64,000 nt of DNA, taken from assembly GCA_000182565.2 (NCBI GenBank), contig KQ257458.1, one strand, 5' to 3'. This DNA comes from Spizellomyces punctatus DAOM BR117. Taxonomy: Eukaryota. Both the position numbers and the translations under genes were made by a program. Positions 4,080 through 43,980 of the stretch are shown here, one piece after another. Each line of letters begins with the position of its first letter. Within the stretch, counting starts at the first letter, position 1. The notes beneath the pieces are model-generated. The model did not search any database and was not told the origin of the DNA. It worked only from the letters and a program-made list of their open reading frames with translations.

Positions 4080-4145
4080 TCAAAGTTACCGAGCCAGCTT
4101 GCCTATACGACAGGGAATGAACCAGCGTAAACTGGTTCAGAAAAG
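4080..4145 (-). ncRNA. Putative omegaRNA scaffold downstream of Fanzor copy B (3' boundary uncertain)
   Basis: About 25 nt after the stop: CTTTTCTGAACCAG-TTTACG-CTGGTTCA-TTCCCTG-TCGTATAGGCAAGCTGGCTCGG, with a perfect 8-bp hairpin. 4111-4168 is conserved with 43043-43101 and resembles the 5' half of the SpuFz1 omegaRNA as recalled. Confidence 0.75.
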
Positions 4146-6672
4146 TTAACTAACTGCTACTAGACAATCTAAGCTACCAAAGGGACATGTCTACTGAAAA
4201 TGGCTGGTCTAACACCATGATCTAAATACGATTTCACGATTGTTACCATATTAGACGTCCTTTATTTGTCTCGATTCCAGTAACGGTAAGTGCATCCTTG
4301 CTCTATGCAGTTTGGGTTGGTACAACCTAGCAAGCCATGCACTTTTTCACTACATCCTTTCTGATGCTGCCAGGGTCTCGAGTGTGGTCGTATCTTGAAT
4401 CCCTTTTGCCAATGATCGCCTGATAAGCATCTTGGACATATTGATGAGGTTCGATATTCATCTAATAGGAAGCAATCGATGCGATTGCATTTGAAACAAT
4501 TCTGCCATCCAGTCGTTTTCGATGATATCTGGTATTTTTGGGTATGCCCACCATCGCTCCAATCACCCATTACTACAGCAAAACTACTACCAAAGCATTT
4601 CCTCATATTAGATATCAGCTTTGCTTCAGTTCTTTGGGTGTTCATGTAGGTATGCCATCTCCATCTAGTATGGGTGGGATGTGAATAAAAGTCCTTCAAG
4701 GGTGCATCATTGTCATGGCGCCATGACAGGTAATGAATGTAGCTATCGAGATTCATTGTTTTATGTGAAGGCACTGCAGACTCGATGACATCAATGCCAT
4801 TCTCATGCTTCATTGCTTCATGGGATTTGTTGAACCTCCTGCTTCCAATCTCTTTGGTTCTTTGCATGGAAGTATAGTGAAACATACACCCATTTTGAAG
4901 ATCCTGACAGTATAGCATATCATGCTTATTGGGATCAATGGTGACAACATTGGATGCACTGCGACAGGCCGTAAGATTATTCTCGATATATTGACTTTTG
5001 ATATCTGCTTCAATTGCCTGTTCTGAGTTGTGATGCTTGTGTCTGCCATATTTTGCTGCATCTGGATGCTTCAGGCAAACTGACATGGAGGTCCCATCCA
5101 TTGTTATTGATCCATCAAATGCCATTCCACTACGTGTCATGAACACCTTACTGCCAAGATTGCAAACACGCAACCACAAGTCCATTTTGTCAACAGCGTC
5201 ATATTCTCGCTGTGAGACTTTTAGCACATGTTGATACAGAATCATAGTATCAATGCGAACATGGGATTGGATAAACGATCTTTGCAATGGGATGGCATTA
5301 AACAAGGGCAGGCCGCATCATTCGAATAAACGGGATAATGCACAGTGAGACAGAAAAAATGACAGCGGATCACATGCTACAAGATATGTGAGTGTCCCTT
5401 CTTTTCCTATTACTCGATCGAGCAAAATATTCCAAATGTCTTCTAATAATGCACTTTCCAAATCACTCAGGTCTAGATCATCGGTTTGTGGAATGTCGTC
5501 TAATAAGAACAATTGTTTCAGATATCACAATCTGGCAAAAAATGATGTTCTCTCTGCTCCCAATAGTCTTTTCTGCTGGTTCTTGACATCTAATCAATAA
5601 TTGATGAATCTAACTAGCATTTTGACAAAATGCTCTTGGACATTGACTTTAATGTTTGTTATGACACTGGTGGTGAGGTAGTTGATGGACTGTTGATCGT
5701 ATTTCAGGTTGGGCCGAGTAAAACCCACAACATCACAGTACTGATCAATATGGGGCATGAGGATATCATGGCAATCTTTTTTTGCCATGTTGCCTGGCTG
5801 CCAAGCTGCACCTTTATTCAGCAGGTAAAGCATTGCCTCCACAACAGTTTCATTGATAATCAGAAAGTGTGGGCTGGATAGGATGTAGAACTTGAGTGCA
5901 TGAGTAGCATGGGCTGCTAGTTCATGGACGATTCAGATATAATTTTGAACGCGATCTCGGTAGGTATCATTTGCAGCAAAAGCCTTTTCAAAAGATGTCT
6001 TGTGACATGAATGGAGGATAGCAGGTTGGTTGACTTTCTGCTTCTTCTTTGGAGGCATCGTTGAAGATGAAGACTGTGGGAAAATGGGCAACTCATCTTT
6101 TAAATACTGGATAGATCTATTATTCATTAGACTAGATATGGGTTTATAGATATTGGACAACATTTCATTGGTCACTTGGGATGAAAATTTTTGATAGTAT
6201 GTCATGTGACCATGGGTTATTTATTGTGGTCACCGAAGGGGGTCAGGGGTATTCATTAGGTAGCTTTCAGTGGAGGCATTTACCAGTGTCTTTTGGGCGA
6301 GATTTGAGGATTTTGGATAGTCATTGTTTACATTCCATGCCTGTACCAGCGTCGAATCCTGGCATCCCATGTCTGAATCTTCAGGCCCGACGCGTAGCTA
6401 AGCCACCCGCCTCACCCAAACCATCGAGCGCCATCATCACATTCATAGCATTCTTCAGGCTTGAAGCGCTTCATCATATTGGCGCTTTTTCATATGTCGT
6501 TGATATGCAAAGAGGAGTTCATGTATACATTGCCATGCTGGGCATAGCGACGTACAGCTTTGCAAACTGGTAAACCCTGCTGAACTGGCATAGCTTACGC
6601 TCATATCCGATGGCAATCAAACCTTCCTCCGCGGCAACCCCAGTTCATTCCCTGTTGTATAGGCTTGCCTAT
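4097..6672 (-). mobile_element. Fanzor-carrying non-autonomous DNA element with ~22-bp terminal inverted repeats
   Basis: 4101-4122 (GCCTATACGACAGGGAATGAAC) is the reverse complement of 6643-6664 (GTTCATTCCCTGTTGTATAGGC) at 21/22. No transposase ORF inside. Exact ends and TSD unclear. Confidence 0.65.
4169..6058 (-). pseudogene. Fz1: Fanzor1 nuclease, copy B; full length (~629 codons), five premature stops, no frameshift
   Basis: ORF-track pieces 5933-6205, 5594-5842, 5318-5512 and 4262-5305 share one frame. N-terminal NLS-like PPKKKQK; RuvC-I TIDPN; VMGDWS; RuvC-II LLDEYRTSSICPRC; zinc finger CPRC...CTNPNC; RuvC-III YWNRD. The frame continues past the TAA at 4262 as RTSNMVTIVKSYLDHGVRPAIFSRHVPLVA to TAG at 4169. 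Stops at 5933, 5594, 5525 and 5318 are TGA; the one at 4262 is TAA. Confidence 0.95.
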
Positions 6673-6799
6673 ATCCACCAAGCGGATTCTGAAATAAAAC
6701 GGCGTATATTAGAGTAAAAAGATATTGGACGATTTTACACTTTCTTCCACTTGATGAAATTAACAATTAACAACAGCTCCACCATTGGCTCCACAGCTC

Positions 6800-6844
6800 C
6801 ACCATCCATCCCACAGATTGGCACATCATTGACCCTTACACGGC
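6800..6844 (+). repeat. 45-bp copy of the stomatin intron/exon junction (9307-9351)
   Basis: CACCATCCATCCCACAGATTGGCACATCATTGACCCTTACACGGC matches 9307-9351 at 44/45. Confidence 0.92.
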
Positions 6845-7498: not shown

Positions 7499-7600
7499 CA
7501 ATAGGAAATTTTAAAAAGCAACCAAGAAGTGCAACCAGCTTCAAAGTGGTGACTGTGCCTCCGGAACGGCGGCGCAGCGAATGTAACTTTGGTGTCGGTT
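7499..7600. repeat. 102-bp inverted repeat of 14814-14915 (SDR upstream region)
   Basis: Reverse-complement match with 2 mismatches. Confidence 0.95.
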
Positions 7601-8652: not shown

Positions 8653-9915
8653 ATGACAACGCCCGAACCTAAAGGCAAAGGTCGGGTTCACGACGAGCAA
8701 CCCGCAACTCCGCCTCCAATGTTCCCTCTTCAAGCTACGTACGCCAAGGAGATTCCCTTGCCTGCTGAAGCGTACGGATGGTGTAAGTAGCAGTGTAATC
8801 TCAATTTAATAAAGTTTTCTTCCAGTGGTTGATGGATCACATTTCAGATGAAAGCATGATGAGTTGCCTTGGCAGTGTCGCCGGGGTATTGGGCAGCATA
8901 CCATGTTGTTGCTGTTGTCCCAATCCCTACAAGTCGGTAGCGCAAGGAACTGTGGGCCTGGTCACTCGTTTCGGCCGATATTACAAAAGGTGAGGATGTG
9001 ACGTACATGTCGCTGCCAGAGTTTTTGTTCCTCATCACACTGTAAATTTTTGCAGCGTCGACCCTGGACTGCACGCTATCAATCCCGCCACTGAAAATCT
9101 GCAAACATTGGATATCAAGATTCAAGTCGAGGATATTCCGACTCAGGTAATTTCTCGATATACATTTCATTTCTTTAAAAGGAGTACAGGCTGATCCGCT
9201 ATATGTTCTCAAGTCTGTAATGTCCAAAGACAACGTTATGGTCATGATTGATTCAGTCCTCTGTATGTACCCCTGTTCTATTTGGGATGTCGGATTAATG
9301 AATTCTCACCATCCATCCCACAGATTGGCACATTATTGACCCTTACACGGCCGCCTTCCTCGTCAACAATGTCCGAAAAGCCCTCACTGAACGGACACAA
9401 ACTACTCTTCGTCAGATTATCGGCTCACGTACAATTCAAGACTGCGTTGAACAGCGAGAAAGCATTGCGCACGAGATTCAACTCATTGTCGAAGGCCCTG
9501 CTTCCACCTGGGGTGTTAAAATCGAGAGTATTTTGATCAAGGACATGCAATTCAGTACTGAGCTCCAGGAGACTTTGTCATCTGCTGCGAAACAGCAACG
9601 GTTGGGTGAGAGTAAAATTATCGCTGCCAAGGCTGAGGTCGAGAGTGCGAAGCTGATGAGGGAGGCGTCCGATATTCTTAATACGCCTGCGGTATGTTGT
9701 TGTATTACCCGAGTGGAAATCACCTTTCTGCTGCTAACAATCTTTCCTCGGCTTGGGCACAATTGTAGGCCATGCAAATCCGATATCTTGAAACGCTCAA
9801 CAGCATGGCCGCCAAGGCGGGCACCAAAGTCATCTTCATGCCTCCTAATTCTGATGATCTCGGAGTACAGAGAGTGACGCAAATGGAAGTCATGGGCCAA
9901 GGTGGTCATGCGTGA
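8653..9915 (+). CDS. Stomatin / SPFH (band 7) family protein, multi-exon
   Basis: Exons read CCCCPNPYK...GLVTRFGRYY, SVMSKDNV, WHIIDPY, WGVKIERVLIKDM, LSSAAKQQRLGESKIIAAKAEVESAKLMREASDILNTPA, AMQIRYLETL; TGA at 9913-9915. Confidence 0.9.
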
Positions 9916-10078: not shown

Positions 10079-10671
10079 GATAGTTTATGTATGCGTGTGA
10101 TTCCTCAAGTTTAAAGGAAATTTTCAAATATACTGGGGACTCACGTCTTCGTCAAAGAACAGCTTTCCAGCTCCAAGAGAACGAACCATATGACGACCAA
10201 CCTAAATCAAAAACTGTTCAATTCAATCCATATCTTCCAAGAAAACAAGAAGTAGACATCTCTGCTCAAAAAGGTCAGTGTCTATAGACCATGTCATCTC
10301 ATTCTGTCTGCTTGTTCGTATGCATCTTTTATTTTCAATTTGTAACATTTTTCGGTGTGTTACACCCTTAGTAATTTCAAGTTAACCTTAACCTTCCCAA
10401 GTTTTGGACTTTGTCTAAATCGAAAGGGCTGGTGGAATTTTGCATGCGTTCTACTGTTGCCATAGATCACTATACTTTAATTCTTGGAAAATTCTGTTTT
10501 CGAACATTCCGTTGAGCATGTTTTCCTTCTTCTCGTTCCCCATAGCGCGTGCTCTGCTAGCGTGACGTCACCAACAAGTTGCTGTTATTTAACAGACTTG
10601 AAGCTCTCTGCTCTCCCCAATCAGTCTTTTCCCAACTTTCTAGACGCAACCAACATTTATCAAATTCAAAA

Positions 10672-13032: not shown

Positions 13033-13324
13033 GCAATGTAATCCAATACATCTTGTGCAATACATCCTGTGCATTTCTTGTACATCATGATATAGGTGAT
13101 TAGACTGGTCAATCACATCTTTCGAGCTACCGCATTCAATTCTGATAGTGTATTGCACATATTGCAAAACACTACGTTCGATTGTTTTTGGATAATGTTG
13201 TTTCGTACCCAATGTCAATACTGATGGCACCATACAGTTGAATTAGGGCCACTGGTACTCGTACTGCTGCAGGATTCGGGTTTAACGAAACGCGCTCCAC
13301 AGCTCCATTTGTTTCCAGCAAGGC

Positions 13325-13350
13325 TATCGTATAGGCTTGCCTATTCGATA
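13325..13350. repeat. Solo 22-bp palindrome flanked by TA, matching the Fanzor element ends
   Basis: TA-TCGTATAGGC-TT-GCCTATTCGA-TA; compare 4097-4110 GCTTGCCTATACGA and 6655-6673 TTGTATAGGCTTGCCTATA. Confidence 0.7.
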
Positions 13351-14649: not shown

Positions 14650-15017
14650 TCTTGACCTTTGGACCGAGGACGTTCCCGCTTGGGTCCTTGAGATATACTT
14701 GCAGTGCCAGTGGCACTTTGAGGCGGAAATCGGAGGCCGTCCGAAACCGCGGCGGTCAGGGTTTCAACCGCAAACCCGGAACCTTGGAGTAGCACAAGAC
14801 AAAAGCCTCATTTAACCGACACCAAAGTTACATTCGCTGCGCCGCCGTTCCGGAGGCACAGTCACCAATTTGAAGCTGGTTGCACTTCTTGGTTGCTTTT
14901 TAAAATTTCCAATTGTATACCTTGTACTGCTCTGCAGTTTAGTCGGCGGTCCAGTGCCTATCTAGCAAATTGAGGCAATATCGCTTTCGCTACATACGCA
15001 TCATCATCATTTTTGAA

Positions 15018-41277: not shown

Positions 41278-42868
41278 TTACAAGACCTTATCAATGACGC
41301 GAACCCCATTCCCACTAATAAAACTTCTAGAGGACGACGGGTGCACCCCAACAGCGGCATGGGTATACATGGATAAGCTTGTATCCGCAAAAACGACCTT
41401 CGATTTAAACTGTGTATGAATGGATGTCAATCAAGGGCAATGAAAGATTGGTAGAGTAGAGGTGACAAGACCTTTTTTCCATAGTACCGATCTTGAGCTG
41501 TGTTGTTCACAACTTTCATAACCTGTACCTCATGATTAGGAACACGCAGGGGCATATCTCCCAACCGACGAGAAACGTTACCGCAAAGGGTGTGCCTTGC
41601 TCCTTATTCAATAAAGCCCTGCCGGCCTTCACGACATCCATAATACCGGACACGTACACGGCACCCGACTCAGGATCGACAGAAATCTGCTCACCCCATA
41701 TGGGCTATATGATACATGAGGATTTTTTGTCACAATAGTGGTCTCCTGGATGGACGGACGTACCACTTCGATTGTTTCGAGCAGCCGTAACCGATTGTTC
41801 TGTTTACGTTCGTAAATAAGGACATGGGGACCGGATGGGTCTACTACGTATATGCTTGTGGAAGAGGCCGCAATATCTGTTGGATAGGTGAGTCCTTCTG
41901 TTGCCACTCTGGAAGCATACGTGAATAAGTCGACGATGCATAAATAAACATCAACTAGAAGAAACCGACCTCGTCGTACCATCTTCACCCCGAAACACCA
42001 CACGGCCATTTGTTCCAATTAGTGCCTGATCTGTCACATAAAAGCTTTTTTCACCAACAGCGGCGATTCCCCCAGGCCGCGTAAGACCGATCTCGTCCCA
42101 TGGAATGGTTTCCAAATGAACGAATTGGGTGGTAGTCAAGGTGTGAGAGAAGATTTCGATTGTACGCTGACTAGTGAGGGTCATGAGGATGAGGGAGGAG
42201 GAGTTGGTTGGGTGAGGTGTTACGCTTATGGAGAAGGGGGGAGGGGAGTGCAATTTCGTGTTTTGAAGGGTGGGTTTGGATGTCTACTAGGTAAAATCAG
42301 TTGATGGTTGCGCAGATCACCGCATAAAGGAGAACGCACCTTCATATCAAGCACAACAATATTCGCATCCTTATTCCCAGCAGACTGTTCGTGAACTCTA
42401 GAGAACGGTGGGAACCATTTGTAGCTCCCTGGGAGGCTTTCACTACAGGCTACTTCAATGAGCACCAAACTACATTCGAAAATTGACCGTAGTTTAGCTG
42501 CGCTCAGACATACCCAAGAAAACCTGCCCAGTAGGTTGGTAAATTGCTGCTGCTCCACACCCTTTCAGAACAGGATCTTGAATACCCGTCACACCAGGAT
42601 AGTTAGTCAGTGCGGTGATTGACCAAGGCCCACGAGTTTACAAGGCAGCAGCATACCATCCAACACCTTCCAACCGTCCGTTCCAACGTCTCCGAGGTTG
42701 TTTCCAACCTGGTAAATGCTGTACAATGCTCTGCCTGTATCAGAGTTTTGGACTGTCAACCTTGGCGCATTGTGTTCACTTTGTAGATCCCATACCAGTT
42801 GGGTACAAGTACGCGCTCAAAACGCCCATAATCACTCCGAGAACCGTGACAACCGCTAAGGACACCAT
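41278..42868 (-). CDS. Paraoxonase/arylesterase-like beta-propeller protein, multi-exon
   Basis: Signal anchor MVSLAVVTVLGVIMGVLSAYLY; IEIFSH...HLETI; PGGIAAVGEKSFYVTD; GLTYPTDIA...IYVVD; ISVDPESGAVYVSG; TAA at 41278. Confidence 0.7.
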
Positions 42869-42984
42869 TGTGGGCCGGGTTTTTGGGTCTGAGATGAGGA
42901 AGATGTGTTCAAAGATAGGAGGACAGCTGTGCTGACCTGCGGACAGATCATTCCGCACGTGATCAGTGTCATTCAGGGAAGCCC

Positions 42985-43077
42985 ATATGTCCCCCTTTTT
43001 ATTTAGTGTAGAGGTGACAGAAAATGGCACTAGCTACTACACCAGGGAATAAACCAGCGACAACTGGTTCGGAAAAG
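42985..43077 (-). ncRNA. omegaRNA: ~74-nt scaffold (43077-43004) plus flank-derived guide AAUAAAAAGGGGGACAUAU
   Basis: CTTTTCCGAACCAG-TTGTCG-CTGGTTT-ATTCCCTG-GTGTAG...CTACAC-TA: two stems, ending in CACTA at the element end, the architecture of the SpuFz1 omegaRNA as recalled. Confidence 0.8.
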
Positions 43078-43742
43078 CCAACTAAGCTACTACTAGGCAA
43101 TTATACACGCAATACGTAACGGTTGGTTCTAACCGGATAATTGCCCACCACCACACACGGTCCTTACTAGGCCTTGATCCAGAACTCTTGATGGCATTGA
43201 AGCCAGACTCTTGCATCCAGGAGCGAATCGACTGGGCAGCATCACAAGCTGGAGGATGTTCAGTGACAAGGCTTGGAGACTAAAAACTGCATGTCAGAAG
43301 ATGACCCAATGACAAGAAATAAAATGATGCAATCAGTACATACCAACCAAGCTCAACTAATGTGGCAGTATAATAGCAGCTTTGTTGGTTCCGAGTGATT
43401 GTTGCTGGTTCCAGTTGGTTGTAGTCATCGGGAGGGTGAGGTCCTCGGCACCACCACATCTGCATTCTCATGGTTGACCGAGTCGCGATGAGGGTTGCGA
43501 TGTGGGTTGTGATGATTGCACAGATGGTTTGAGAGTCGAGGATGGGTAAAGAGGAAAGAGGGAGCAGGTCTCTTTTATAGACCTTTGGCATGCGCCTCAC
43601 CGCAGTTTAAAAAAAAAAAAACATTACATTAGCATGCCACACCGTTTTGAGCGATAGAGGGGGTGCTGATTATGCGATATGATTAACTGGATTATCCGGA
43701 TAATAATGGGTCTTAGTGCCATTTTCAATCACCTCCACACTA
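43004..43742 (-). mobile_element. Fanzor-less 'ghost' element (MITE-like) with 29-bp TIRs and a TA target duplication
   Basis: 43004-43032 TAGTGTAGAGGTGACAGAAAATGGCACTA vs reverse complement of 43714-43742 TAGTGTGGAGGTGATTGAAAATGGCACTA (26/29); TA at both termini; shares ~58 nt with the 3' flank of Fanzor copy B. Confidence 0.88.
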
Positions 43743-43980
43743 TATTCTGCCCATGTTCATACCCACCCCAAATTATTCTATTCTTACGCCGATAAAATAT
43801 TCAAAAGACAGGTCCCATTTGTCCCTCATCCACCATACCGTCAATTTCCCGGCGATCCCGCGCCAGGCACGATGCATACGCCAATTGCTTCAAACTTAGT
43901 GGCCCATCATCTTGCTTATCTAGCACGGACCGGAAGACTTTGACATACCGATCAACTGTGCGTTCCAGAAACTGCTCTAC

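Follow-up and report, generated by a model that had tools for sequence, protein, structure and literature searches.

A ghost SPu-1-type element in Spizellomyces punctatus with an omegaRNA scaffold, an internal TATA box and a GT-AG intron

Introduction

The closest described relatives of the locus analysed here are the 'ghost' Spu-1 loci of Spizellomyces punctatus, 134 of which were reported by Saito et al. in 2023 (PMC10432273), with 30-nt repeats having seven differences from the Fanzor repeats and a right end formed by a 75-nt omegaRNA-like region. In human cells, SpuFz1 was shown to edit with four of the ghost scaffolds, and action in trans was proposed; the TAM of SpuFz1 is CATA, any change to which reportedly abolishes cleavage (PMC10432273). 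A later study (Nat Commun 2026; PMC13434818) lists 126 ghost scaffolds, gst1-gst126, in its Supplementary Data 1. Of the Fanzor families themselves, SPu-2 was listed as a Fanzor1 family with two copies by Bao and Jurka in 2013 (PMC3627910). TnpB makes omegaRNA by processing its own mRNA (PMC10278001), and the restorative homing of transposons has been reviewed (PMC13565253).

Within the window, the whole stretch of 64,000 nucleotides that was analysed, the original prediction placed a Fanzor-less ghost with an apparently intact omegaRNA. Here we compare this element with the published family and describe its internal transcription unit.

Results

The element and its family

On the basis of its inverted repeats and a copy search, the element is a non-autonomous, Fanzor-less one of the SPu-1 type, 735 bp long, on the minus strand at 43006-43740. 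Its 27 bp terminal inverted repeats (left, 43714-43740; right, 43006-43032; both given for the minus strand) match at 24 positions and are bordered by TA on each side (43741-43742 and 43004-43005), the inclusion of which brings the match to 26 of 29; a repeat search of the window delimited the arms as 43001-43032 and 43714-43745. This agrees with the predicted segment of approximately 740 bp, with 29 bp repeats matching at 26 positions and TA on both sides. No ORF of at least 120 aa is found between the ends, which are homologous to those of SPu-1 Fanzor loci, in keeping with the rule by which ghosts were selected. No transposase was found for the element, nor did the contigs of four sequencing runs (X1, X5, X10 and X12) contain a joint skipping it, as would indicate an empty allele, the latter being a weak negative; hence the TA is only presumed to be a duplication.

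Like the ghost Spu-1 loci of PMC10432273, the window copy lacks a Fanzor ORF and has a 75-nt scaffold, and its repeats differ from those of SPu-1 at seven of the first 29 positions, counted by eye, where that paper also gives seven. SPu-1 itself (PMC3627910) has TA flanks, related repeats and the scaffold in common with the ghost. The window copy departs from the description in PMC10432273 in being preceded by TATA (43741-43744, minus strand, the left TA being 43741-43742) instead of the CA motif of the family's CATA, and in having 681 nt between its arms, as against a conserved length of about 550 nt.

Searching the genome (G000) with the element returned 185 candidates, and amongst the 40 that were scored the full-length copies are 81-91% identical, such that the interior is conserved across many copies. 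A 23-nt signature of stem 2, allowing at most two mismatches, has 111 matches in the genome (44 forward, 67 reverse) and none in the control, compared with the 134 loci of PMC10432273. A set of 42 non-redundant copies, having both ends and the splice-donor motif, was taken forward. Before the left end, 35 of these have CATA, three (the window copy being one) have TATA and four have another motif, whilst TA terminates 41 of the 42. CATA also precedes all 16 of the SPu-1 loci with a detectable left repeat, out of 30 Fanzor loci fetched. Apart from the scaffold region, no DNA similarity to these 30 loci was found in the interior of the ghost, and an origin by simple internal deletion of SPu-1 was therefore rejected.

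The window scaffold (43078-43004) is identical, by eye, to gst121 of PMC13434818 Supplementary Data 1, a sequence common to three copies in the genome. The left end of the element (43669-43742, plus strand), which includes the left repeat, is likewise identical by eye to gst81, and this 74-mer is unique in the genome. Hence the loci gathered for that list included the window copy, or else the same insertion as present in a near-identical genome. The element thus belongs to an already published ghost family, with the individual copy probably already in the published list, to judge from these identities; as a locus, it is an ordinary member of a repeated family. These entries, along with the copy number and the covariation described below, bear out the prediction of a Fanzor-less ghost with an intact-looking omegaRNA, but its description as a 'stand-alone guide-RNA gene' is overstated for one copy of a repeated non-autonomous transposon. 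The upstream CA motif, a usual feature of target sites that the selection rule does not require, lies in the flanking DNA. As the copy equals a listed entry, the TATA motif lowers the expected function of the element and does not affect its family membership. Amongst the scaffolds that the text of PMC13434818 names as tested, gst121 was not found; relative to ghost1, which was, the window scaffold has three differences, comprising a compensatory pair in stem 1 and a base in the dispensable part of stem 2.

The gst81 entry corresponds to the left end of the window element on the other strand, and not to an omegaRNA. By-eye counting suggests that 68 of the 126 entries are ghost left ends on the opposite strand and about 38 are true scaffolds, the rest being other sequences. 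An orientation slip in the published list is likely from these comparisons; the 67 reverse and 44 forward signature matches fit it. Three of the five low-activity entries (gst7, gst73 and gst98) are left ends, and the ghost left end folds poorly (z +0.6). Such a slip, if real, would mean that the use of many true ghost scaffolds in genome editing is still to be explored.

The omegaRNA scaffold

The 75-nt scaffold (43004-43078, minus strand) consists of stem 1, a linker and stem 2, the 3' arm of which lies within the right inverted repeat and the adjoining TA. It was identified through its identity to gst121, its fold and its covariation. The 75-mer folds into two stems at -19.8 kcal/mol (z -3.0). 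Covariation was assessed in 43 distinct scaffolds of the 53 extracted, leaving out the SPu-2 scaffold and nine indel variants. The 16 named pairs are paired in 99% of 688 cells, and five of them change on both sides, with compensatory changes in both stems; the covariation score is 0.225, as against at most 0.089 in slid controls. As the scaffold sequences are related, these counts are not independent events. The window copy itself carries one such variant, an A-U pair in stem 1 in place of the common G-C. Over the 42 copies, conservation within the element is strongest in the scaffold region, with a pi of 0.017-0.052 compared with 0.163 in the intron, the highest value. No Rfam match was found in 42800-43900 at E values up to 1. 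The predicted details, namely the conserved GAACCAG/CTGGTT(C/T) stem and the variation in its loop, a second stem that terminates in CACTA, and a guide at 43003-42985, are all as originally written; by analogy with PMC10432273, the guide is predicted to comprise 15 nt of flanking host DNA (42989-43003, minus strand).

At some Fanzor and ghost loci (L045, L046, L056:174-249, L073, L074 and L077), SPu-1 stem 1 is joined to a different stem 2 and end. This foreign end resembles the SPu-3 terminus, which suggests that ends may have been swapped between families.

A putative spliced internal transcription unit

Upstream of the scaffold lies a putative transcription unit, all parts of which are on the minus strand. 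A candidate TATA box (43573-43579) is conserved in an alignment of 30 copies. From the first ATG (43471), exon 1 (43344-43471) begins a spliced frame of 92 codons, the coding value of which is doubtful; it is followed by a 64-nt GT-AG intron with a CTGAC branch motif (43280-43343) and by exon 2 (43079-43279), which runs up to the scaffold and has its last 23 nt within the block common with Fanzor copy B. In the window copy, neither the TATA box nor the splice signals nor the scaffold is disrupted. The joint 43279-43344 was found in contigs of three of the four runs (X5, X10 and X12, but not X1). In the genome, 89 ghost copies have the intron, and a search by exact flanking motifs found no intronless or retroposed copies as DNA. 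The joint is hence best read as splicing, and the element apparently does not spread through its spliced RNA.

These runs are represented by contigs that carry no information on strand, ends or level and that pool paralogues at 85% likeness. Labels were guessed for three (X5 and X10, 'DNA?'; X12, 'RNA?'), with no run type given for X1; X5 and X10 were treated as RNA because their contigs skip host introns. A ghost transcript and its splice are therein evident at the level of the family and not of the single copy. A contig of X12 matches 43087-43156 without differences, a stretch that other copies may share, and none of the contigs listed is RNA from the window copy extending across both scaffold and guide. 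The first record of X1 (42651-43032, no differences) extends over the guide into the terminal 29 nt, but because a host intron is retained and the run type is uncertain, this record was left out of the RNA evidence. Summed contig depth in X5 is 69,391-82,018 over 42966-43113, 127-731 over 43558-43779 and at most 50.5 on the neighbouring genes, a pattern that fits transcription downstream of the TATA box, although such depth combines paralogues and is poorly suited to measuring level.

Frames were compared in 38 copies, four of the 42 having been dropped for a different ATG context. When spliced, the first ATG opens a frame of at least 85 codons in 29 of the 38, compared with two when unspliced, and the length of exon 1 preserves the frame in 33 of the 42 copies. 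Counting changes simply, without a transition correction, gives a dN/dS of 0.30 for the first 14 codons, on few changes, and 0.94 for the whole frame (shared changes), which is no better than the 0.63-1.01 of the five other frames; purifying selection on one ghost reading frame is thus not seen. Several lineages shift frame yet stay open, with different C-termini. Neither exon piece has a Pfam match (that of exon 2 being read in another open frame), nor does exon 1 have a usable match in the Atlas. The spliced transcript is accordingly read as a non-coding precursor.

The main texts of PMC10432273 and PMC13434818 make no mention of an intron, a TATA box or polymerase II, though the supplementary files of the former might, and a literature search found none whose title or abstract deals with the splicing of ghosts. 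The TATA box and GT-AG intron in ghosts are hence additions to the main texts of the two ghost papers.

Guide, target site and flanking genes

The ghost sits 59 bp after the stop codon of the upstream gene and 136 bp before the ATG of the downstream gene (42868), between two co-directional spliced host genes (the intervals concerned being 42868-43004 and 43714-43803). It lies inside the 3' untranslated region of the upstream gene, the X5 contig of which enters the left repeat at its 3' end with no differences over 43714-43977 and includes the TATA junction; the X5 run may be of the same strain. An 'arylesterase' label for the downstream gene was set aside as unconfirmed, none of four exon pieces having a Pfam match below an E value of 0.3. 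The reconstituted empty site would form a TATAAATA box situated 136 bp before the ATG of this gene.

In that same site, the guide would come after TATA. Allowing up to three mismatches, the guide has 32 matches in the genome and 12 in the control. A search for ATA plus guide recovered the locus itself (one mismatch, preceded by ACTA), one two-mismatch site with a broken motif and 30 sites at three mismatches, such that no target with an intact ATA and fewer than three mismatches was found elsewhere in the genome; there is likewise no CATA-plus-guide target, either at the empty site or elsewhere. Given the TATA empty site and the lack of another good target, the window copy is probably an orphan guide, one that by its sequence has no site cleavable by the known enzyme. 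TATA may have been the original target, or may reflect a later C>T change, such changes occurring at CA sites at 0.18 per site among singletons; had it arisen after insertion, a wild empty allele could still be cut.

Fanzor copies A and B

The nearby Fanzor gene, approximately 37 kb away, is copy B of the SPu-2 family (4169-6058, minus strand), which has 630 codons with five internal stops on read-through and is not a usable partner. It matches SpuFz1 in PDB 8gkh (E 9e-147); as Pfam did not recognise it, its identity comes from PDB sequences and the SPu-2 entry. Copies B and A (the latter with one internal stop) are respectively 58% and 61% identical to the SpuFz1-like protein of L053, and the pair matches SPu-2 of PMC3627910; no third copy was found in the genome. 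The predicted similarity of about 58 nt between the ghost and the sequence after the copy B stop is real (43043-43101 against 4111-4168; 84.7% over 59 columns, E 8.5e-12), the copy B side of the block beginning directly after the read-through stop TAG (4171-4169), with an earlier in-frame stop at 4264-4262. At its 3' end (4097-4168, minus strand), copy B has stem 1 and the linker as in the ghost, followed by a short stem 2 that is disrupted relative to copy A; the similarity stops before stem 2 because copy B has different ends. With TA included, the left inverted repeat of SPu-2 spans 6643-6671 (minus strand), and its partner arm is at G000:C9:617421-617449. This 29-bp repeat differs from that of the ghost and its pattern matches the genome twice, both times at the SPu-2 locus; neither the SPu-2 terminal repeats nor its short stem 2 are present in the window ghost. 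With 111 ghosts in 24.1 Mb, any ghost is expected within 37 kb with a probability of about 0.29. Together, the family, stops, ends and chance-level distance tell against the implied partnership with this gene. Intact SPu-1 genes lie elsewhere: 13 of the 30 fetched Fanzor loci have ORFs of at least 620 aa with the D/E/D catalytic residues.

Some further features of this region were observed. The SPu-2 ends, blank in the 2013 table of PMC3627910, are here a 29-nt inverted repeat including TA, with TATA upstream (6643-6673). At about 53 nt, the SPu-2 scaffold, in which stem 2 is small, is naturally short and comes near the trimmed SpuFz1 design of 52 nt. Copies A and B together make up a duplication of 2344 bp with 95.8% identity, 4960 bp apart (4102-6443; G000:C9:617428 to window 1483); copy A lacks the left repeat, whilst in copy B the right end has changed beyond the first stem 2 arm, and several of the stops have the appearance of CpG decay. 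The small terminal hairpin motif of SPu-2 recurs at 13332-13343, without the rest of the repeat. The window also contains short dispersed repeats (1481-1710, 2081-2113, 10441-10610, 13079-13148, 7499-7600, 14814-14915, 6800-6844 and 9307-9351), amongst them a 102-bp inverted pair 7.2 kb apart (7499-7600 and 14814-14915), which are possibly further mobile-element fragments.

Discussion

We consider it probable that the element is a non-autonomous, TA-flanked DNA transposon of the ghost SPu-1 family, in which a guide-RNA cassette replaces Fanzor. Its ends, its copy number, the two-stem scaffold with compensatory changes, the spliced family transcript and the intact SPu-1 nucleases elsewhere are the observations behind this. 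From the internal TATA promoter, polymerase II would transcribe an RNA that is spliced and that extends across the right repeat to the flanking DNA; given the TATA box and the spliced contigs, the guide is probably trimmed from this precursor. By analogy with TnpB, trimming to about 90 nt (75 of scaffold and 15 of guide) would occur on binding of Fanzor protein, supplied in trans from intact SPu-1 loci. The predicted supply in trans to a Fanzor protein encoded elsewhere is plausible and has been proposed in PMC10432273, but the implied partner 37 kb away is unsupported. The complex may then cut the element's own empty site after excision, with repair restoring the copy, a step that probably fails for the window copy, in view of its TATA-plus-guide site and the lack of another good target.

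It is fairly unlikely, though the most probable of the alternatives, that the window copy is a silent or non-productive miniature transposon, its scaffold looking intact owing to recent insertion and the family RNA coming from other copies. No locus-specific RNA contig bridges scaffold and guide amongst those listed, the TAM is off-consensus, and folding predicts that a G run in the guide pairs with the linker of the scaffold (MFE frequency 0.11), the guide-scaffold pairing being the third-highest of the 42 copies. Yet nothing in the TATA box, splice signals or scaffold is disrupted, and the X12 contig matches 43087-43156 perfectly, even if other copies may carry the same stretch. We regard it as improbable that the transcript is a genuine mRNA, encoding a protein of some 90 aa (a helper or an anti-silencing factor, for instance) and carrying the omegaRNA as a 3' tail; the open spliced frames, the frame-preserving exon 1 and the low dN/dS of the first 14 codons would be expected of such a gene, but the whole-frame dN/dS is within the range of the other frames, lineages have shifted frame to give differing C-termini, and the exon pieces are without Pfam matches, exon 1 also without a usable Atlas match.

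The window ghost could also be a guide partner of the neighbouring SPu-2 Fanzor, a branch possibly reading TATA or NATA, but the chance of this seems slight. Over the 60 nt that end at the linker, identity is 85-87% to SPu-2, as against a mean of 76% and a best of 82% to 26 SPu-1-type loci; the left end of SPu-2 is also preceded by TATA; and R96 of SpuFz1, a residue listed among TAM contacts, is G in both SPu-2 copies, hence their TAM may differ. However, both copies are broken and no third was found, the ends and stem 2 differ from the ghost, a ghost at this distance is within chance expectation, and the ghost family as a whole falls between SPu-1 and SPu-2 (79% and 82%) and prefers CATA. Least credible of all, and by our estimate very nearly negligible, is co-option of the copy by the host, with the guide acting on the promoter of the downstream gene. 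The empty site would indeed read TATAAATA upstream of its ATG, but the guide-matching DNA in the filled allele is preceded by ACTA, which is no TAM; a match between the guide and its own flank is built into every ghost; splicing of the downstream gene persists in runs X5 and X10; and the window copy has no special conservation.

Returning to the non-autonomous guide-cassette transposon, a broader proposal, to which we give somewhat less than an even chance, is that ghosts act as spliced polymerase II precursor genes providing the native Fanzor with around a hundred guides in trans, the intron and open frame aiding expression or stability. Off-consensus copies would be loaded without being able to cut and, if this is true, may act as decoys that dilute Fanzor. 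A copy with a broken TAM is in addition a natural control for whether Fanzor homing maintains ghost elements, and the spliced precursor offers a testable route for making eukaryotic omegaRNAs without their nuclease gene.

In the TnpB and homing systems described in PMC10278001 and PMC13565253, as in the ghost, the guide would be made up of the right end together with the flank, released from a longer transcript and aimed at the empty site. Unlike that of TnpB, the ghost precursor is spliced and carries no nuclease, hence loading would have to be in trans.
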